DNA of 62,128 nt, counting the filler. It is 12 parts of 12 records of this genome, joined end to end, with 100 filler letters (N's around TTAATTAATTAA, not from the genome) between each part and the next. Parts side by side here need not be neighbours in the genome. Positions count along the whole stretch, not along the records: positions 45,263 to 53,825 come from SRR7504441_4590; 11 more parts are not named here. One strand, 5' to 3'. This document shows positions 3,201-58,072 of this stretch, piece after piece. How positions within the stretch are numbered: the stretch's first letter is position 1; each line of letters starts with the position of its first letter. The translations under genes and the position numbers were made by a program. The notes under the pieces were generated by a model. The model made no database searches and was not told the DNA's origin. It was given only the letters and a program-made list of their open reading frames with translations.

Positions 3201-3300
3201 NNNNNNNNNNNNNNNNNNNNNNNNNNNNNNNNNNNNNNNNNNNNTTAATTAATTAANNNNNNNNNNNNNNNNNNNNNNNNNNNNNNNNNNNNNNNNNNNN
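3201..3300. other. Artificial contig-joining spacer (N44-TTAATTAATTAA-N44, stops in all six frames)
   Basis: Identical spacers at 3201-3300, 6961-7060, 11563-11662, 16489-16588, 19638-19737, 25144-25243, 37600-37699, 41766-41865, 45163-45262, 53826-53925 and 57973-58072. Confidence 0.98.
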
Positions 3301-6960: not shown

Positions 6961-7232
6961 NNNNNNNNNNNNNNNNNNNNNNNNNNNNNNNNNNNNNNNN
7001 NNNNTTAATTAATTAANNNNNNNNNNNNNNNNNNNNNNNNNNNNNNNNNNNNNNNNNNNNAAGGTCGGTAACTGAAAGTGAGCGCTCCGCAATTTAAGTT
7101 CAATCATAATGATACCGGCTTGCTGACAGGGCCAGAATTGAACAATCTAATATCAACTAATTGGGGTTCACCAGCTTAATGTACAATGGTTTTATGAAAT
7201 CATGAATCGTTGAATGTAAGCTTACAGGCCGC

Positions 7233-11562: not shown

Positions 11563-11662
11563 NNNNNNNNNNNNNNNNNNNNNNNNNNNNNNNNNNNNNN
11601 NNNNNNTTAATTAATTAANNNNNNNNNNNNNNNNNNNNNNNNNNNNNNNNNNNNNNNNNNNN

Positions 11663-16335: not shown

Positions 16336-16589
16336 CTCCTTTGATCAGCGGGCAGAGGGGCACTGTACTGTAGAGTCTAGGCAGCGCTTCCGTTACAACG
16401 GCCAATCTCCAGGACTGGTGTGGCTCGGTGGCTAACAAGGACCAGCTTAGACCAGCTAGCCCGGGACCTGGACCGGATCGCCCGCGAANNNNNNNNNNNN
16501 NNNNNNNNNNNNNNNNNNNNNNNNNNNNNNNNTTAATTAATTAANNNNNNNNNNNNNNNNNNNNNNNNNNNNNNNNNNNNNNNNNNNNG

Positions 16590-19536: not shown

Positions 19537-19737
19537 TCGCATAGAGAACGCTCCAGTGTAACCATAGTGTGCCTAGCTTTGTATGAAAGTATTTAAACTC
19601 CGTGGTCAAGAGATGAATTCCATTTTAATGCGTGAATNNNNNNNNNNNNNNNNNNNNNNNNNNNNNNNNNNNNNNNNNNNNTTAATTAATTAANNNNNNN
19701 NNNNNNNNNNNNNNNNNNNNNNNNNNNNNNNNNNNNN

Positions 19738-25143: not shown

Positions 25144-25243
25144 NNNNNNNNNNNNNNNNNNNNNNNNNNNNNNNNNNNNNNNNNNNNTTAATTAATTAAN
25201 NNNNNNNNNNNNNNNNNNNNNNNNNNNNNNNNNNNNNNNNNNN

Positions 25244-37568: not shown

Positions 37569-37699
37569 CGGAGGATCCCTGTCAGCTTCCTGCAGCTGTN
37601 NNNNNNNNNNNNNNNNNNNNNNNNNNNNNNNNNNNNNNNNNNNTTAATTAATTAANNNNNNNNNNNNNNNNNNNNNNNNNNNNNNNNNNNNNNNNNNNN

Positions 37700-41523: not shown

Positions 41524-41865
41524 GCTTCCGCGCCGGGAGGGCTGTACATATTATGGACATGATTTTGGATTTTAGATTCTTTTATCGGCAGTCTCAGGGT
41601 GCTTGCTGTACAAGATCGGAGGCATGCCATCCCACACAGCTCAATTTGTACACTAATACATTAATTGTAGACCATGCATTCGTTAATTTGATTAAACTTA
41701 AAAACTATACTTCCACATTAATTAAAATTATTTAAACCGTAAACAAGAAGACTAACTAAGCAAAGNNNNNNNNNNNNNNNNNNNNNNNNNNNNNNNNNNN
41801 NNNNNNNNNTTAATTAATTAANNNNNNNNNNNNNNNNNNNNNNNNNNNNNNNNNNNNNNNNNNNN

Positions 41866-44800
41866 CCACGACCGCCCAGGCCGCCCCAGCCCGGCTGGCC
41901 GCCGACTGGCTCCGGCCCTGGCGCGCCTGCCCGATCGGCACCCAGCCACGCAGGATTCCCATCACGTTTATCAAGGTTGGCTGGCTCATCGCGCTGGCCG
42001 TGCTGATGAGCCCCGCACTAGCCTCGCCTGAGCCGGCACTTAGCAGCCACCGTGATCCCGCTCCGACCGCCTTGGCTGGGCTGGGCGCCAAGGAGGCGGC
42101 GGCGCCCGACGGATATGCCGCTGGACACCGGCGCTTGCAGGACTCAACTGATACGACGACGCGACGCAGGAGGAGGCGGAGGAGGAGGAGATGTGTGAAT
42201 ACCGATTATTTGTACGGGGCAAAGAACAGGGACGGAGATGGCTGTGACAGTTACACCGATTACACCGATTACTGCGGTGCCTGGGACACCGATGCCTTTA
42301 AAGCTAGTGTGATGTGCTGTGTCTGCGGTGGGGGCGGGGATGATTTCTGTGTGGACACCGCCAATTTGGCAACCGACTCCCAAAGAGGTGGCTGTCAAAC
42401 ATACACCGAGCGCCACTGGTGTGGCGATTATGACGATGGAGATTTCAAAGCTAATGAGATGTGCTGTTTCTGTGGTGGCGGAAGAGACCCAAACAGCCCA
42501 ACGGCTGCGCCAACCACGAGAGCGCAGCCAGAGTGTCCATGCTCCGGAAGGTCTGACTGCTGGTCTTTATCAGATCTGTACACAGCAACTGGTAAGCAAG
42601 CTTATGAGGCTGTCGGCTGGTAACTTGACGATGCTGGCAGGTGGTGCGCGGTGGGGCCCAGAGTACAATCACAACTGGTGCAACGGGGGCGACCCTTGCG
42701 GTGATACCTGGGCCGATGACCAGTCCTGGGCCGGGGTGGGATGCGGAGAAGGCTTTCGGTTTGGAGTGGCAATTCTTAAGTTGGAGTTATTCCAGGCCTC
42801 GCTGTCCGGGAGCATGCCCAGCACGATCGGCAGCATGGTTGACCTGACTCGCCTGGACCTGTCCCAAACCCTATTGTCCGGAAGCCTGCCGAGCGAATTA
42901 GGAAGCTTGACCGAGCTGAATACGCTGGACTTGTCCCGGACTTTGTTGTCCGGGAGCTTGCCGCGCACACTCGGCAGCACGACTGGCCTATTTGACGAGT
43001 TTAAGTTACAGGAGTTGGACGTGTCCCAGACCTCGTTATCTGGCACCCTGCCAGCTTCGATCGGCACGGCTTCCATGCTGCATTGGCTGGCTCGATTGGA
43101 CTTGTCCCAGACCTTATTATCCGGTAGCTTGCCGAGCACAATTGCGAGCACCCACAGACTGCGGGGGTTGTCATTGTACAAGACTTCGCTGTCGGGTAGC
43201 CTGCCTCACAGCATCGCAAGCCTGACTGAGCTGCGGGGGCTGAATTTGGACCAGACCTCGCTGTCGGGGAACTTGCCGAGTAGCATTGCAAGCATGGCTC
43301 GCCTGGGGAACTTGGCTCTGTACCAGACCTTACTGTCCGGTACCTTGCCTCGTACCATTGGGAGCATGGCTGGGTTGAACCAGTTGGCACTGCACCAGAC
43401 CTCACTGTCGGGCAGCCTGCCTCAAACAATTGGCAGCATGGTTGGACTGGAGCGGTTGGTACTGTACCAGACCTCGCTGTCGGGCAGTCTGCCTCACACA
43501 ATCGGAAGCATGAAAAGGCTGTTCGCCTTATACTTGTCCCAGACCTCACTGTCCGGGAGCCTGCCTGACAGCATTGGGAGCTTAGCTAGACTGCGGAATC
43601 TGCAGCTATCCCAGACAAGAATCTCCGGAAGCTTGCCAAGCGCAATTGGCAGATTGAATCCTCGCTACTTGGACTTGTCCCAGACCTCACTATCTGGCAG
43701 CTTGCCCGATGAAATGAGCAGCATGGTTGGACTGAGGCGCCTTTCATTGTCGGCGTGCCTCCTAACTGGTACACTTCCTCGGGAGATTGGCAATTTGGAC
43801 CGGCTACGGGGGCTGTACTTAAGCCAGAACTCGCTGTCTGGGAGCTTGCCCGATAGCATTGGCGAGATGTCTGTGCTGAAGGGCCTGTCTTTGTCGTCAT
43901 GCCTTGTATCTGGTACACTTCCTCGGTCGCTTGGTAGCATGACCAGGCTCAAAGACTTGAATTTGGCCGACAATGCACTCCGCGGCTCTTTGCCCAAAGC
44001 GCTCGGCAGCTTAAGCCAACTGAGACTTCTCATGTTGCATCAGAATCAACTAAGCGGCTCCAGCTCGCCTTCCTTCGCAAACTGGTCAAGGCTGGCGTTT
44101 TTCTCGCTTTCACACAATCGGGGGCTCGACTTTGACCTTGGGCTCCTCCGCAATCAGACCAGGCTCCGGACGGCGCTGCTCGAGGTAAGACCGTTTTGAG
44201 CTGTACGCCGCTCTATGTTATTTGAATGCTGAGGCGGCTGAACTGAGCGTCGTTGATTGTTCAGGACTGCAGCATTCGAGGTACACTACCGCACTTGGAC
44301 AAACTACAGCTACCCAGCCTGGTTACGCTCCTGCTGACAGACAACAGCATATCGGGTACAATATCCGAAGGCTTTGCACAAGGCATGCCTGGCCTCGAGA
44401 CTCTGGCCTTGTCCTACAACTATCGGCTCAGCGGCACCTTGCCCCGATCCCTTGGGAATATGCTCGCACTGAAGACGCTGCTTGCTGGTGGTCTAAGGTT
44501 GGTTGTATTCGCGCTTTTCCTGCTTAGCACGCTAGGCCACTCTGACAGCTGGCGCTGCAGGTTGTCGGGTTCGATTCCAGCAAGCTGGGGCACCAATGGC
44601 GGCAGACAGCATGAAGGCGATGCCACCTGCGTGGATCTCCTCAGTCCGGATGGCCTTCCCTGGCGCGACTCTCAGCGACCGATGGAAGGCGAGCGCAAAG
44701 TTGTTATCTTCCCACCTGATGGTCATAGGGTTATCTCTCTACCAGTGGACTCTGACCGTTGCAGGGAGAGTCAGGGGTCGCCCTCTGGGGGCTGGCTTGG

Positions 44801-45162: not shown

Positions 45163-45547
45163 NNNNNNNNNNNNNNNNNNNNNNNNNNNNNNNNNNNNNN
45201 NNNNNNTTAATTAATTAANNNNNNNNNNNNNNNNNNNNNNNNNNNNNNNNNNNNNNNNNNNNATCCCATCGTCTTACAGCTTGACGCGGCGCACCAGCCT
45301 GATCCGGAGGAACGGACAAAGAGCTCACAACAGACGCATGAGACAATTTGGGGGGTACCGAATGCCAACACGAGGACGATAACGCCAATGATCTGTGGTT
45401 TTGAGGTTACAAGTACTAGTGAGTAGTAAGTGAGTAGGGGAGCAAAATAAATCTCACGAGGTATCAGCGCGGCTCGTAGAATCTTCAGAACCATTTGATA
45501 TTTGGGTTTTAATTAGGTGTTCTTAATAGTATAATTAATCGTATGTT

Positions 45548-48500
45548 TTACTCGGCCGCTGGCTCTGCTTCTTGTTCTAGCAACTCTTCAGCCTCTGCTT
45601 CACGTGGGGTCGGCTCTGGCGTGTCTGGAGCTAGCAGACCCTCCCTTGTGCTCGGCGTGGGCTCGAGCGTGGTCCCGTTCTTGGCCCCTAGCGACAGCAG
45701 CGAGAAGCTGCCGGCTCGGGCCTCCTGAGACAGGCAAGGCACCACAAACAGCGCACCCTTGTCTGGCTCCAGATCGACGCACACACTAGCCTCGCCGGTG
45801 GACAAGAAGGGCTCCGTGGCTGCCAGCACAGTGAACCCAGCCTCGACTTGATCGGTGCTGCCGCCAGCCGGGTTCTGGACCACCACAAATCCAAACTCCG
45901 GGTCCGGGATCGGCTCCATCACCACAGCCGGCTCGGCCGCCGCCTCCTCGGCAGCCGTGTACTGTGGGAGCCATCCTCGAGAGTGCCCAGGGCGGCGGGC
46001 TCCAGATGTTCCGGAATACTGACTCGAGCTTTGGCAGCGCAATCCTGCCTGAAGTGACGTCGCTGGCGGTGGCCCCGGCCGAGGTTACGCCGGAGGTGGG
46101 CTGCGAAGCCGCGCTCGACCCAGAGGCCGGGCCCGTGCTGCTGCTGGCGCACGGGTGTGCGGCCGGGTCCGAGGGCGATTTCCGGGTGCATTTGGCGGCC
46201 GATCAGAAGGTCAAGGTGGAGCTGCTGGATGCAGCCCAATGGCAAGTGTGCCAGAGCCACTGGAGGCCGAGCTGGTGCGGCGGGCGTGGCTGGGCCGAGC
46301 CGGAGCAGCTGCAGGCCTGGATGAGCAACCCTCAATTTAGGCTCAGGCTGGACAGCAAGCCGGACAGGGTGTGTGTGGTCCTGTCTGATGTCAAGATTCA
46401 GCCCAAGATGAGACCAGTGGTGCTGGCGGCGGCTGAGGAGCCGGCAGCTGAGGAGGCGGAGCAGCCAGCGGAGGAAGAGGCTGCAGAGGAGGAAGCCGCG
46501 GCTTGGCGCTCACCCGCCAGAGTGGATTATTCCGCCAGCGGTCAAATCCAGCCGCCCGGGGACCGCCCGCAGCCGCGCCATGCCACCTGTAGTCGTACCG
46601 ATGCACCACCGACGCAGGAAGCTCGCGTGCAGTTAGCTTCACCGTCGGACTGAGGCTGGCAGCAGTAACAGTAAAACCGCCTCCGCCGGGCTCGGTGCGC
46701 GACACAACCACTGTGCGCGCGGTCGGGCTGGCTGACAGTTGCAGTTCGAGGCAGGCAGTCCGGCCGGCGGCCATAGCCATGCGCGACCGAGCTGCAGTCG
46801 GCAGCGCGACAAAGTGCTGGGCAGTGGTATCGTCAGGCATCACAGTCACACTGAAGCTGGTGGGCTCCTCCGCAACCACCGTCAACTGCACAGTAGCCGG
46901 CTCGTCGGGACAGCTCAGCTCAAAGTGAGGATTGGCCCCAAGCGCGGCCCCGGTCCGCCACTGGCCCTTGACGTGCTGCCGGGCGACCTTGCCCCCCTCC
47001 TCCTCAGGCTCCGGGCTCTTGACTGCCAGCAGCCAGCCCATATGCTCCACGAGCTCCTCCAGCGGAATCCAGCCGCATCCTGGCTCGCTCAGTTCAAGCT
47101 GCGACGCCAGTCCCTCGGGCCAGCTGCTAAGATCGGCCAGTGAGCCGCCCGTCGCCAGGTCGCCGCTCAGTTTGACCAGACGTGCCTCGGGGGCCGGCTC
47201 CGGCTCCTCAGCTGGCTCAGCTGGCTCCTCTGGCTCGGCTGCTTTATCTCCAAACAGTGCACTTGGTGCAGTGGCAAGTTTCTCGAGCTTGAGAGGTTCG
47301 CCCTTTTCTGGGGCAAGCCCGACAGCCCAACCGGCCTGCTCTAGCCGCTGCAACTCGGTCCACAGCTTAGCACAGCCTTCCTCGGGCTCGTCCATCTCGC
47401 GCAACTCACTGCCTGAGATCATCGCCGCAGCCGAGCCGGTCATCACATGCAGCAGGTCAGCCAGTGAAGCCTGCTCGACGGCTGGGTACCCACCGAGCAG
47501 CTTGGCGCAGCCCTTGCGGAGCATCCCAGGCCACAGCCGGTGAGGGTTGGCGGCTGCTGGCAGTCTCAGATCCAGGTCAACACTCGTCTGCACGCCGTCC
47601 TTGAACAGCTTGAGCAGGCAGCTGCCGCTCGCCGAGTCAAACTTGTCGAAACAGCCGGCCAGCAGCGCCGGCGCCTGTGCAGCCAGCAGCCCAGCCGCGG
47701 TCTCAAACCCGCCCCCTTCGCTCCCGACCATCAGGTGCCCAGCCTCGAGCACAAGAAGCTCCGTCTGGTCGACCGCTGGAGCCGGCTCGGCCTCCTCCTC
47801 GGCCGGTGCCTCCTCGGCCTCGGCCTCCGGCTCCTCCTGCGGCTCGGGCTCCTCCTGCTGATCATCCAGCCGGGCTGCCAGCCTGTAGTGTGGCTCTGTC
47901 TCTGCAGGCTCCGGCCGGGTCCATCCCTCCTCCCCAAACTCGCCGTCCTCGTACAGGCAGCTGGCCGCGGCGTGCGCGCTCAGCCCGGCCTCGTACCCAG
48001 CTTCGCCGGCCTTGGCCGCGGTGAGCTGCTGGGCCAATTGTTGCTCCAGCGAGCGGGTGCGGATCTTGGCCAGTCGTGCGCGGCAGTTCCATGTGTGGTC
48101 GTTCTCACCGAGCGCCTCGGCCTCGATCATGGCCGCCTCGACACTCGCGATGTCGAGCAGCTCTGCGTCCTCCCGCTCGGCCCGCCCAAACCATTTCTTG
48201 ACTGACGCCGCCGACTTCCTCATCTGACTCGCATATTGAGCCGCCTTGTGCGCCTTGTGCAGCTCGGCGAACCGCTGGCGGGCCGCGTCCACCTCTTGCT
48301 TGAGCCCGAGCGCCCCGAGAGCCTTGAAGCCCAACTCGAACTTGCAAAAGTCCTTGGCCTGCCACCCGTCTGCCAGCTGCTTCCGGGCTCGCTGCGCCCT
48401 CTCCCACAGCAGCGACTGGTCTAGCCCGGCCGCCACCGACTCTGTGGCCACCTTGTGGGCCAGCTGTATCCGCTCGGCTTCCTCCACCATCTTTTGCTTG

Positions 48501-49474
48501 AGCTCAGGAAGGAAGCTGCTCTCGATCTCCGCAGGCAGAGGGTCCGCAAACACCTCCTGAGCAGCCAGCCGCGAGAACACGTCTCCCCGCAGCCCGGAGA
48601 GCTCCTGCCGGGCCACTTGCTCTGCCCGGGCCTGCACCGCCGCCTCGGCCTGTTGGCGCTCCTGCAGCTGCTGCTGCTCCGCCCTCCTCTGCTCCTCCTG
48701 GTCCTTGCGAAGCCGGAGCGCCTCGAGCCGCTGCAGCTCTGCGAGCTCCATGTTGCGCACGATGTCGAAGTCGTTGGCGGCCACCTCGCGCGCGTCCTGC
48801 TCCTGCTCCTCCAGCACTTCGTTGAACGCCAGCTGCAGTGTCTGGCCGACAACAGACTCGAGAGTCGGGACCACCTCGGCTTCAAACTCGCCCAGGAACT
48901 GGCTCTCCGACTGGGTGGCCATCTCGCACACTTGCTTGGCCGGCACATACAGCGGCAGCGGCAGCGGATCGTAACCGACCGGCTCGTCCGGCTCCTCCTG
49001 CCGCCGCCGCTCGGGCCCGGCCAGCCGGCCGCACCCACCGGCCTGTCGATCGGGACTAGATCGGGAGCCAGCCGCGCCTGCGCCAGCTCGGCCTGCGCCG
49101 CGGCGGCCGCAGCCGCTTCGACGGCGTTGGCGAGCTCGTGCTGCTTGCGCTGGCGGCGGGCCTCGTGGGCGGCCCGCTGCTCCTCGGCCCGGGCCTCGCG
49201 CTCAGCCTCCTGCTGTATGGCCTGGACGATCTCAGCGTTCTTGACGCCTGGCCTCAGCCGTCGGACAGGCCGGCCGGCCGGGGGCGCCTGTGCAGGTCGA
49301 GCCGCGCACCACGCGCTTGTCCCACATGATATTTGCAGGCGGGCCCACCGGCTGCAACCCGGTCAGGACGGGCCGGGCCGGGCGCACCTGGTTGGCTTTG
49401 GGCCGGCGGAGCCGCTTGCCGTTGGTCCCGGCCAGCGCCCGCGGCTCGCTCGCGTAGTGGTAGGCCTCCGGCAT
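45548..49474 (-). CDS. Radial spoke protein 3 (RSP3) domain fused to a degenerate calpain core and repeated calpain domain III; interrupted by an internal inversion
   Basis: RSP3 motifs NIMWDKRVVRGST, PLYVPAK..ATQ, FEAEVVPTLESVVGQTLQLAFNEVLEE and RNMELAELQRLE. Calpain-like WPGMLRKGCAKLLGGY..DLLHVMTG. Domain III motifs GQW..ANPHF and W..AGG..WRNNP. Three 5' introns, including GC-AG 49248-49287. Confidence 0.85.
45958..46498 (+). other. Inverted 541-bp coding segment belonging to the minus-strand RSP3-calpain gene
   Basis: The plus strand encodes calpain domain III sequence (CTVGAILE...W..SWCGG..WMSNPQFRLRL..VCVVLS). It is flanked by AGCCG (45953-45957) and CGGCT (46499-46503), and re-inversion is in frame at both junctions. 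Confidence 0.9.
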
Positions 49475-49826
49475 CTCGCCTGCCACCCGTCGCCTGTCGC
49501 TCAAAATAGGTATCCGTTGTCAGCGGTTGGACCGTCAGAACGCAGACTGACTCATTGACACGCTGACATCATGATCAATGCTTCGATGGAACCTTTGCTC
49601 CGGTTTCCGCGGTTTCTTGGTGGTCCTACTCGAGTTTGGCTTGGCGTCTTATCTTCAACCAGAATCTTAGCCGCATCTAAGCTGCATTGGCTCGGGACTG
49701 GCAATTGGTCATGATTGGTCGTGATTGTGACGTCTGTGCACTTTCATTATTGGCACGGTGCATAAGTCAATAAATCTACAATTATATCAGGCTCTAGAGA
49801 TGCCTAACTACCAGTAATCGGGTTAG

Positions 49827-50938: not shown

Positions 50939-51828
50939 TCAGTGCTCTCGGACCTGTGCCGCTGGTCAGCCTGGCCGCCCGCAGCGGCTCGCCGTCAGGT
51001 TCAGCCGGCCGTCCAGTGTCAGCGCCGGCTCGCCGTCCGCCCCGTCCAGCTTCACAGGGCCTGCGCCCCGTCCGGCTGCTTGAAGGGGGGGGCACCGCCC
51101 AGTATCCTGGGCACCCCGTGCACGATCCGCTCGGCGGGGCCCCCGAATACGATGACGTCCCCCGACTGGAGCAGCACCGACAGCTCGCGGCTCTTCCGAG
51201 ACCAGCTCTTCCTGAAGCTGGGGGCCACTCAGCCCGTCCGGAGGGAGCCGGCGCACACAAACTCGCCGGTCGAGCCCAGACTGAACGAGACCACCGGTAC
51301 CCCGGGCCGCCGGCCTGCCCCCGGTGGATCCGCCCGCCGGCTTCTCGGCACCGGGCTTGTCCACGTGCTGGCCTAGCCGGCCGTTGGGCGGGTACCTGGC
51401 TCGCCGGCTGGGCCGCCGGGCGAGCTGGGCCGCACCAGTTGAGCACGCAAGTCCGCGGGCTGAGCATCGAGAGCGAGCCGCTCAGCTCACAGGCCGCCCC
51501 GCAGGCCGCTGCCCCCGGCTGGCCGGGCCGCCAACCGGGCCGGACCTGTGGCCAGGGCCTCGAGCTGGGGCGGTATGGCCGCCTGGTCGCCCGGGGCGGC
51601 CTGCTTGCCGATGGTGCGCTGGTGCATGTTCTTTGTCACCTCGCTCCGGCAGGGGCCGCCGGTGCGCACCATCGGCAGACAGGCCGCGGCCAGCTGCCGC
51701 TGCTCGGACTGGTCCAGGAAGCCAGGCAGCAGCACCACCCCTGGCGTCAGCTCGCGCCACTCCGATGAGTCCTCCTCCTCCTCATCCGCCGCCGCCTCCG
51801 CCTCCTCCTCCTCCCGCGGCCGCTTCAT
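50939..51828 (-). CDS. AlkB-family Fe(II)/2-oxoglutarate dioxygenase, many short introns
   Basis: PGVVLLPGFL, YPPNGRLGQHVD, PVVSFSLG, LQSGDVIVFGG..RIVHGV and GRLNLT|VREH* (GC-AG intron 50954-50992). Confidence 0.88.
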
Positions 51829-51908
51829 ACGCCCACCTGCGGGGCGTCGGCACGGCGAGTCAGTTGCCGCCGCCGGTGCGGGATCGCGCGACTGCTGTGC
51901 AGCTGCTC

Positions 51909-53648
51909 ATGGCCATGTTGCTGCTGCTCCTGGCGGGGGTCGGGGCTGTGGCCGCCCAGCCGCGCTTCAGCAACGTCTTCCAGAGCCACATGGTCCTCCA
52001 ACGCGACGAGCCACTGGCGCTCTGGGGCCTGCAGGCCAGCGGCTCGCCCGGCGCAGTCGAGCGCCTCCGCGTCTGCCTGGGCGACCTGTGCACCCACACC
52101 GAGTGCGCCCCCGACGGCTCGTGGCGCGCGTCGCTCGCTGCGCAGGAGGGCACCAGCAAATCGCGGACGCTGTGGGTGATCCGGGAGCGCGACGGGCAGG
52201 GGTCGCTGCTCGAGGACATCGTGGTCGGGGACGTCTACATATTTTCGGGCCAGAGCAACATAGACATACCGGAGGCATACGGCCACCAGGTCGACCCGCT
52301 GCGGAGCGATCCAAGCCAGAACGGGGCCGCAGCGCAGGCCAAGGAGGAGGCACTCGCAGAACAGCTCGGCTCGGCCGGGCTGCTGCGCATGCGGATCGTG
52401 GACGTCTGGCCCGACAGCGCCCCACAGTGGAACGCCACTGAAGGCCAGCCGGAGCTCACCGAGACGGGAGACTGCCCGCTCTGCGCGTCCCCCTTCGCGC
52501 TTGGCAACCCAGACGGCACGTGCAACGCCAGCCTCTCCAGCTGCAACCCCTTGGGCAACTACAGCTGGTGCCAGTGCTCTGCGATGGCCTGGGCGCGAGC
52601 ATCCGCCACAAACGTCAGGGGCTTCTCCGCAACCTCGTGGTTCACAGCCGTCGCACTGCGAGCCTCTGTCGCGGCGCTCGAGGGCGTACCGGTTGGCGTC
52701 GTCAAGAGCTCCAAGGGGGGCAGCACCATCGACCTCTGGAGCAGCGCTGACGCTCGTCAGCAGTGCGCAAGCGCCGCCCCTGCGCCAGTGCCGCCCTGCC
52801 ACGCGCCGAGCCTCTGCCCAGGCAGCCTCTGGTCTCAGATGATGGCACCTTTTGCCGGCGCAAAGTTCAAGGCAATTGTCTGGTACCAGGGAGAGAACAA
52901 CCTTGGGCAGGCGTTTCCGTATTATCGCTGCGCGCTCGAGGCGATGATTCGCGACTGGCGTCGCAAGCTGCAGCTGCCGGGCATCCCCTTTGTGGTTGTC
53001 CAACTGCAGCCGTGGTGCACGGCAACGAAGTACTGCGACGACCCGCTCACGGCGCCACTCGCAGCGCCGCCGACGGCCCTGGCGGAGATGCGCCTTGCGC
53101 AAGCTGCCGCCGCCGCAGCCCTCCCGGCGACGGCTTTGGTGAGCGCGGTGGACCTGGGCTCGGTGCATTCGCAGGCCGGCAGCTGCCACTCGGCCCAGAA
53201 GCCCGAGCTCAGCAAGCGACTCGCACTCGCTCTCAAGGCCGCGGTCTACGACAACGCAACCGTCTGGGCGAGTCCGGTGGCACAAAGCGTGTCGCGCCAG
53301 GGCGGCAGCGTCGTCGTTCAATTCTCCGCTCCAGGCGGAGCAGGTTTGGCGCTCAACACCTCAACCCGATGCCCAGCCGCGATCCTCCCGGTCTTTTGTC
53401 GACCCGACCTTGGCTTCGAGCTGTGCTCTGCTCAGGCGTGCAAGCCGGCTGCGTCGGTCCGAGCAACCGGCTCGCGCGTCGTGCTGCCCGCTGACGCATC
53501 GGCCACGCGGGTGCGGTTCCTGTTCGCGGACTGGCCGTTGGTGGCCCTGCGAGATGCCGCGACAGGCTTGCCAGCGCTGCCGTTCGACCTCAGCCTGTCG
53601 AGCACTGCCGCGCTGCCGCCCAAGCCCAGCGCCCGTGTGAACGCGTGA
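51909..53648 (+). CDS. Secreted sialate O-acetylesterase (SASA/DUF303 family)
   Basis: Signal peptide, FQSHMVLQRD..LWG, DIVVGDVYIFSGQSN, FSATSWF, WYQGENN, PFVVVQL. The true start is probably 51909, not 51324. Confidence 0.9.
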   Translation: MAMLLLLLAGVGAVAAQPRFSNVFQSHMVLQRDEPLALWGLQASGSPGAVERLRVCLGDLCTHTECAPDGSWRASLAAQEGTSKSRTLWVIRERDGQGSLLEDIVVGDVYIFSGQSNIDIPEAYGHQVDPLRSDPSQNGAAAQAKEEALAEQLGSAGLLRMRIVDVWPDSAPQWNATEGQPELTETGDCPLCASPFALGNPDGTCNASLSSCNPLGNYSWCQCSAMAWARASATNVRGFSATSWFTAVALRASVAALEGVPVGVVKSSKGGSTIDLWSSADARQQCASAAPAPVPPCHAPSLCPGSLWSQMMAPFAGAKFKAIVWYQGENNLGQAFPYYRCALEAMIRDWRRKLQLPGIPFVVVQLQPWCTATKYCDDPLTAPLAAPPTALAEMRLAQAAAAAALPATALVSAVDLGSVHSQAGSCHSAQKPELSKRLALALKAAVYDNATVWASPVAQSVSRQGGSVVVQFSAPGGAGLALNTSTRCPAAILPVFCRPDLGFELCSAQACKPAASVRATGSRVVLPADASATRVRFLFADWPLVALRDAATGLPALPFDLSLSSTAALPPKPSARVNA

Positions 53649-54031
53649 CCACGGCTTGGCTGGCATTGAATGAAATCTTTTGCAAAAGCAGACCTAAGTA
53701 CAACTGTGCGCTTTCCCGTGCTGAGGGCTTGGCTTTGCCCAAGGCGCGGGGCGAATCAAACGGATGTCAGTGTGAACTAGTGTGAAACGTACGCATACAA
53801 TCGTATGGTACAATCTCGGTACAATNNNNNNNNNNNNNNNNNNNNNNNNNNNNNNNNNNNNNNNNNNNNTTAATTAATTAANNNNNNNNNNNNNNNNNNN
53901 NNNNNNNNNNNNNNNNNNNNNNNNNAAAGCGCCATGCGGTCACTCGAGCCGCGCGAGTCCCTGTCAACTTGTATAACTCAACCCGCCATCGCCACCGTCA
54001 GCTTGTCTACTGCTCTCCGCCCAGATGTCAC

Positions 54032-57972: not shown

Positions 57973-58072
57973 NNNNNNNNNNNNNNNNNNNNNNNNNNNN
58001 NNNNNNNNNNNNNNNNTTAATTAATTAANNNNNNNNNNNNNNNNNNNNNNNNNNNNNNNNNNNNNNNNNNNN

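Follow-up and report, generated by a model that had tools for sequence, protein, structure and literature searches.

In spirotrich ciliates, the segments of scrambled genes carry pointer repeats at their ends, the non-coding spacers are eliminated and many loci are scrambled. Ciliate germline DNA is unlike GC-rich sequence that is read in the standard code. Bacterial and phage invertible switches of the Hin, Gin and Fim type have flanking inverted-repeat sites and a recombinase. To our knowledge, neither programmed DNA inversion nor unscrambling is known in the green picoalga lineage. One-off balanced inversions at microhomology are an already known kind of event. In human/chimpanzee microinversions the inverted segment is copied precisely; these segments are 17–33 nt long, with perfect or near-perfect inverted repeats on both sides (PMC8755829). 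Inverted joins are also made during amplification: among 475 MDA chimeras, 85% were inverted (Lasken and Stockwell 2007, PMC1855051), and 76.8% of the junctions showed at least 2 bp of complementarity, with most sites <10 kb apart (PMC1855051).

In this work we looked at a window, by which we mean the whole stretch of DNA that was analyzed, with a length of 62,128 bases. The window is not one molecule; it is made of 12 contigs of 3.0–12.4 kb each, separated by spacers of 100 nt that consist of 44 N, TTAATTAATTAA and another 44 N. The gene of interest lies on the contig at 45263-53825 (~8.5 kb). It uses the standard genetic code, and its sequence is rich in G+C, with a content of ~54–70% around the finding. 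The flagellar protein that it encodes, together with the GC-rich DNA and the short introns, suggests that the host is a small flagellate green alga. Public runs that contain parts of the stretch are labelled as marine, seawater or aquatic metagenomes.

The gene is found in the window in three pieces. The upstream part (piece A, 46503..49474, minus strand) starts with an ATG at 49474 and ends in ...SAK; in tblastn, residues 1-1037 of the homologue P0002 match it at 49474-46508. A Radial_spoke_3 domain and the first C2-like modules are found in it, along with acidic linkers and a calpain-like Peptidase_C2 core that is partial. The inverted block (piece B) measures 552 nt; it was delimited by the joints of public contigs, by a script and by tblastn, and lies on the plus strand at 45951..46502 or, equivalently, 45953-46500. 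It starts 689 nt from the contig end and encodes the remainder of one C2-like module, the following module up to its middle and most of an Ala/Glu linker. The downstream part (piece C, 45548..45950, minus strand), which was delimited by the ORF list, tblastn and alignment, completes the Ala/Glu linker, adds a last half of a C2-like module and an acidic tail, and closes with a stop codon at 45548-45550. The restored gene has the order RSP3 domain, calpain-like core and C2-like modules, in a single frame of ~1,200 codons that is interrupted only by short 5' introns.

In the window, the meaningful minus-strand frame stops at ...WRNNPLWRVSAKP (46499). From there the frame of piece A reads through into the reverse complement of piece B (46391..46498, minus strand, within the ORF 46391..49201), which adds 35 aberrant proline-rich residues and ends with a stop codon at 46391-46393. 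A first-pass annotation of this DNA had described the minus-strand frame as readable down to ...SAKP at 46499 and as nonsense from that point on, and our analysis agrees with it. The same annotation took the continuation from the plus strand at 45958-46498, which is indeed open (180 codons plus 1 base) and is confirmed as the continuation by matches to homologues, and let the minus strand resume at 45957, below which we find it in frame as far as its stop codon.

Homologues were collected with a word index and with a full HMMER search. HMMER gave 554 matches at E ≤0.001; three homologues reach past joint 1 (from piece A to piece B), namely P0001 (582 aa), P0002 (1387 aa, with RSP3 and Peptidase_C2) and P0006 (702 aa), and among the 150 matches listed the rest are almost all RSP3-only proteins. 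All three are collinear single chains across this region, with P0006 breaking off early in piece C. When P0002 was compared with the contig by tblastn, its residues 1-1037 were found on the minus strand (49474-46508), residues 1040-1252 on the plus strand (45952-46575) and residues 1244-1379 on the minus strand again (45952-45551). When the pieces were aligned with the homologues, all three lined up one after another along them, end to end. Once 45951-46502 is flipped, the match to P0001 forms a single HSP (residues 684-1217, E 1.8e-79), whereas the unflipped window is matched over residues 684-898 only. One may argue that there is no inversion at all and that the plus-strand frame is a chance antisense ORF of a gene that ends at 46391, as GC-rich DNA yields many long spurious ORFs on both strands. 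Yet the plus-strand homologue match begins exactly where the minus-strand match ends, with E values of 5e-36 for P0002 and 3e-33 for P0006 under low-complexity filtering, and the pieces are physically joined in the opposite orientation in public contigs. The contig joints and the tblastn matches refute this reading, to which we attach practically no probability. Judged from these comparisons of sequence, the block is a displaced part of the gene, far beyond what would be expected by chance.

The joints themselves can be seen in public data. Logan contigs from four public runs, which are other samples than the source library, were compared with 45263-49500. A 516-nt contig of X1 (probably a DNA run) covers 45895-45950 and then continues from 46502 down to 46043. 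A 325-nt contig of X5, an oligo-dT RNA library, covers 45905-45950 and then 46502 down to 46224, and a 151-nt contig of X3 (also probably DNA) runs from 46031 down to 45951 and then through 46503-46572. None of the three contigs has a mismatch to the window. Collinear joints were found, in this way, in three of the four runs (two probable DNA runs and the oligo-dT RNA library), which come from three studies; X2, an RNA run, has no contig at either joint, and stretches without cover are uninformative. The common form of the gene in public DNA and RNA-library contigs is the collinear one. In X1 the joint-bearing contig agrees with the window at all 516 letters, and the remaining contigs of the run differ from it at 16 of 1394; X1 is a tiny run (8 million letters) with a Nextera adapter tail.

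The flip and its exact borders are directly observed in these contigs. Position 45950 is joined to 46502 on the opposite strand in X1 and X5, and 45951 to 46503 in X3, with an ambiguity of two letters (GC) at each joint; a script that inverted either 45951-46502 or 45953-46500 returned identical sequences. No extra base stands between pieces A, B and C, and the event is exactly reciprocal, with no deletion or duplication. At joint 1 the natural protein reads SAKQPCTV, one Q more than in the first restoration, and at joint 2 (from piece B to piece C) it reads EEAAAEE, one A fewer. Counted from 49201, where the stop-to-stop ORF begins, the restored frame has 1217 codons, of which the first ~68 are upstream read-through across intron 3. 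The flipped block contains no stop codon, as had been noted before; the collinear contigs cover 541 of its 552 nt and agree with it at every one of these, and therefore the event is recent.

Based on these contigs, the borders given in the first-pass annotation have to be moved. It had described a block of 541 bp that lies between 5-bp inverted repeats; the public contigs give 552 nt, 45951-46502, with a 2-nt GC overlap. The repeats AGCCG (45953-45957) and CGGCT (46499-46503) do exist, as does the 12-nt perfect palindrome at the right junction (46493..46504), while the role of the 5-bp repeat as the crossover site has to be given up. Since these repeats fail to give the natural joints, they are an incidental by-product of GC-rich sequence. 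As for the palindrome, the collinear joints imply that 8 of its 12 bases (GCCGCGGC) are the palindrome that stands at the left breakpoint in the natural orientation, and the 12-nt form is this 8-nt palindrome lengthened by the flip through chance flanking bases. It was also claimed that re-inversion is clean. This is correct in that no base is lost or gained, but the keeping of the frame is no evidence, because an inversion never alters the length and the frame is restored automatically when it is undone.

A more far-reaching proposal was that the inverted form is a stored scrambled or OFF state, which is re-inverted by pointer-guided unscrambling or by a recombinase switch that acts on the C-terminus. 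In its favor, both orientations exist across public data (the inverted one in the window and the collinear one in X1, X3 and X5), and the flip is exact and leaves every codon intact. The case shares with the scrambled genes of spirotrichs that part of the coding sequence is on the other strand and that re-inverting it restores the frame. Unlike in those genes, neither a spacer nor any eliminated sequence separates the pieces, the homology at the true joints is 2 nt, the collinear form is the usual one in bulk DNA-type runs, a single case is seen and the code is the standard one in GC-rich DNA, a composition foreign to ciliate germline DNA; the 5-bp pointers that had been suggested miss the natural joints by one residue each. 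The collinear form occurs in the probable DNA runs and not in the RNA library alone, and the RNA library may contain DNA, so that no unscrambling is needed to account for the RNA-library contig. The likeness to the switches of the Hin, Gin and Fim type is that one segment has two orientations across data sets. Here, however, flanking sites and a nearby recombinase are missing, the breakpoints fall inside a folded domain and a linker, the gene is eukaryotic and one of the orientations merely truncates the protein. With the collinear form in probable DNA runs of two studies, an overlap of 2 nt, and neither spacer, repeats nor recombinase, we do not retain the proposal and consider the stored-state explanation very improbable. 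Just as little credence is given to its biological form, in which a green picoalga would switch between the full-length and the truncated RSP3/calpain-like protein by a programmed reversible inversion of 552 nt or by ciliate-like unscrambling. The comparison of independent DNA and RNA-library contigs settles the exact breakpoints and leaves an unscrambling mechanism unneeded.

The window was also searched for the features that a programmed rearrangement would carry, and these searches argue against it. No symmetric inverted repeats were found flanking the block. The nearest arms (45936-45956 and 46479-46499) are 21 nt long, 81% complementary and 18 nt off symmetry, and lie in coding low-complexity sequence. 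As in the first-pass annotation, no recombinase was found on the 8.5-kb contig; in a Pfam scan of its six further ORFs, the sole match was the SASA esterase family (PF03629). For other strand flips, a codon log-odds map was trained on the RSP3/calpain-like gene, which may bias it to genes of similar composition; an earlier GC3 coding map was dropped, as it was not discriminating. Further opposite-strand coding blocks, for which the first-pass annotation had proposed a scan, did not appear in the 12 contigs of the window: across their ~61 kb this is the one tight coding-strand flip, and no second minus-plus-minus flip with near-zero gaps was found. The only other place where the strand switches tightly, 51828, belongs to an ordinary pair of divergent genes. 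Two simple routes to the junctions were considered and rejected, site-specific recombination on account of the dissimilar contexts of the two breakpoints, and restriction and religation through the CCGCGG at one junction on account of the other junction, which has no such site.

What the evidence leaves standing are two of the possibilities that had been named at the outset, a recent null allele and a chimera of amplification or assembly. The explanation that we put first, at an even chance, is a single, recent, non-programmed balanced inversion that is private to the sequenced cell or strain and truncates the protein. In such an event the 552-nt internal segment (45951-46502) would have been cut out and reinserted in the reverse direction with no base lost or gained, either by two breaks followed by end-joining or by a double template switch, at a microhomology of 2 nt (GC). 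The protein would then be truncated after ...SAKP and 35 junk residues, with the loss of about its last 315 residues, which would leave a flagellar protein with a private allele of the truncation or loss-of-function kind. To assemble a contig free of N, reads over each of the new junctions are needed, and a molecule that carried the two of them is therefore very probable; that it was present in the organism, and was not a product of amplification, assembly or data handling, is our inference. Spontaneous inversions at microhomology resemble the present case in their reciprocal junctions, the absence of base changes, the very short homology, the exact copy and the one-off break of a gene. The human/chimpanzee microinversions differ in scale and context, being of 17–33 nt with inverted repeats, against 552 nt and a 2-nt overlap here (PMC8755829).

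The other possibility is that the gene is collinear in the organism and that the flip was made by amplification (through two template switches), library construction, assembly or scaffolding, or data handling. We regard this as a serious contender, somewhat short of an even chance. The three of four runs that cover a joint show the collinear form only, in a sequence identical to the window. The inverted junctions were found solely in the window, the assembly is highly fragmented and the flip stands near a contig end, at 689 nt, and these points count against an inversion in the cell. The perfect flip, with zero divergence and zero bases lost or gained, is also what a computational or early-amplification artefact would produce. 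The library style of X1, in its adapter tail and small size, is presumably that of low-input or single-cell libraries, which also points this way. Taken alone, each junction fits an MDA chimera as described in PMC1855051: the join is inverted, its sites are 552 nt apart, well below 10 kb on one molecule, and they share the 2-nt GC overlap, in line with the complementarity of at least 2 bp. The chimeras described there, however, have a single junction, with a deletion between the joined sites or a fold-back, and are not balanced flips (PMC1855051); two of them at reciprocal positions would have to be a coincidence. Nor is there extended complementarity at the breakpoints that could steer both switches to the same dinucleotides, and hairpin-type palindromic contigs are absent from the window. 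As for assembly, de Bruijn ambiguity requires flanking inverted repeats of about k length, but no inverted repeat of at least 40 nt occurs across the window and the arms near the junctions are asymmetric; flipping of a de Bruijn graph between inverted repeats was rejected for this reason. In the first-pass annotation, DNA that supports the collinear form alone was to mark the inverted form as an artefact. Such DNA is what the public runs contain, but they are not the source library and therefore do not separate an artefact from a private mutation.

The inverted form was looked for elsewhere in several ways. Among the 32 pieces listed, of 53 from four runs, none bridges the inverted junctions with at least 31 nt on both sides. 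A search with piece B in metagenome contigs gave 592 pattern matches, none of which was confirmed, and a 30-nt stretch of the window beside joint 1 had 0 matches in metagenome contigs and 0 in genome contigs. The 272-aa plus-strand ORF that runs through both inverted junctions had no match among proteins of 149–476 residues, a search in which low-complexity words probably swamped the candidates. Finally, none of the three ATG-started ORFs expected from the inverted form was present in the protein collection, where calls that start with GTG or TTG were outside the look-up.

The private inversion, if it is real, carries little biological weight: an abundant marine alga would have, in a single cell or strain, an allele that truncates a flagellar protein. 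The case also calls for caution: a flip that is perfect to the base and keeps the frame looks designed, yet any inversion keeps length and frame when it is undone, and chance yields short inverted repeats at junctions that are GC-rich.

The gene itself can be described from its domains. Piece A has a strong N-terminal match to Radial_spoke_3 (PF06098, 112.7 bits against a gathering score of 26.4, E 2.4e-32), as in RSP3. The middle and C-terminal parts are similar to the calpain core and C2-like modules of calpain-type proteins with a C2-like domain III. In contrast to calpain, the core match in the window copy is partial (profile positions 89-189 of 297) and, with 23.3 bits for Peptidase_C2 (PF00648), falls just under the cut-off of 23.8, which P0002 passes with 32.2 bits. 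Calpain_III (PF01067) reaches 15.5 bits in P0002 and 17.7 in P0001, against a cut-off of 21, and pieces B and C alone match no Pfam family. The structure model of P0001 is β-rich and of low confidence (mean pLDDT 58.8). In this model joint 1 lies between the strands 234-239 and 244-251 of one module, and joint 2 in a disordered acidic linker. The earlier suggestion that the inversion splits a strand of domain III is plausible on this basis and weakly supported, with Calpain_III under its cut-off and a model of low confidence. Foldseek with the same low-confidence model gives calpain chains with a probability of 1.00 (e.g., 1u5i_A, 1qxp_B and 1kfu_L), and also the C2-like domain of calpain-7 (2qfe, TM 0.66 on the target). 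In the literature, a search for RSP3 and calpain did not find the fusion among the papers listed, which is not proof that it is unpublished, and a term search of PMC3563603, which deals with calpain architectures in unicellular eukaryotes, gave no occurrence of 'radial spoke'. The gene appears to be a fusion of RSP3 with a core like that of calpain and with C2-like modules in several copies. It is conserved among environmental homologues, of which there are at least three, and may merit a note of its own.

In the protein encoded by the RSP3/calpain-like fusion gene (45548-49474, minus strand), a radial spoke protein 3 domain is joined to a calpain-like core, which is partial, and to C2-like modules that occur repeatedly; acidic Ala/Glu/Pro linkers separate these parts. 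This architecture is kept in at least three environmental homologues (P0002, P0001 and P0006), and a literature search showed no paper describing such an RSP3-calpain-like fusion protein among the papers listed. Comparison with P0002 suggests that the 5' end of the gene contains three very short, GC-rich introns on the minus strand, at about 49387-49352 (about 36 nt), about 49287-49248 (about 40 nt) and about 49038-48998 (about 41 nt). The 5' boundary of the second candidate appears to be GC and not GT. The length of the first candidate is a multiple of three, which fits another option, namely that this segment could be a 12-residue insertion instead of an intron.

At the flipped block, the sequence at 46495-46502 in the window is a perfect 8-nt palindrome, GCCGCGGC, that includes a CCGCGG site. 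In the natural, collinear orientation its place is at the left breakpoint, with which it coincides exactly, and the flip of the block has extended it from 8 to 12 nt.

The public run X1, in which one contig carries a collinear joint of this block, was compared with the window over 45263-49500. Across its 516 letters, the contig with the joint shows 0 differences from the window; the six remaining X1 contigs differ at 16 of 1394 letters. This pattern points to a divergence that may be uneven in the run, or to a mixture of strains there.

A gene for a SASA-type carbohydrate esterase (PF03629, E 1.6e-15), whose product looks secreted, is found at 51288-53645 on the plus strand. It is arranged head-to-head, with almost no spacer, with a minus-strand ORF (51490-51906) that has an acidic N-terminus and gave no match in a Pfam scan. 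The first impression of a second flip here was dropped in favor of an ordinary divergent pair.

The window contains 11 identical 100-nt spacers (44 N, TTAATTAATTAA, 44 N) at 3201-3300, 6961-7060, 11563-11662, 16489-16588, 19638-19737, 25144-25243, 37600-37699, 41766-41865, 45163-45262, 53826-53925 and 57973-58072, and is thus a string of 12 separate contigs. Genes on either side of a spacer are adjacent in the window and are not genome neighbours; G+C content differs among the contigs, with values of about 49% to 70%. On a contig other than that of the fusion gene, a long open frame (42313-44199, plus strand) appears to encode many tandem leucine-rich repeats of the plant-like LSGSLP type.
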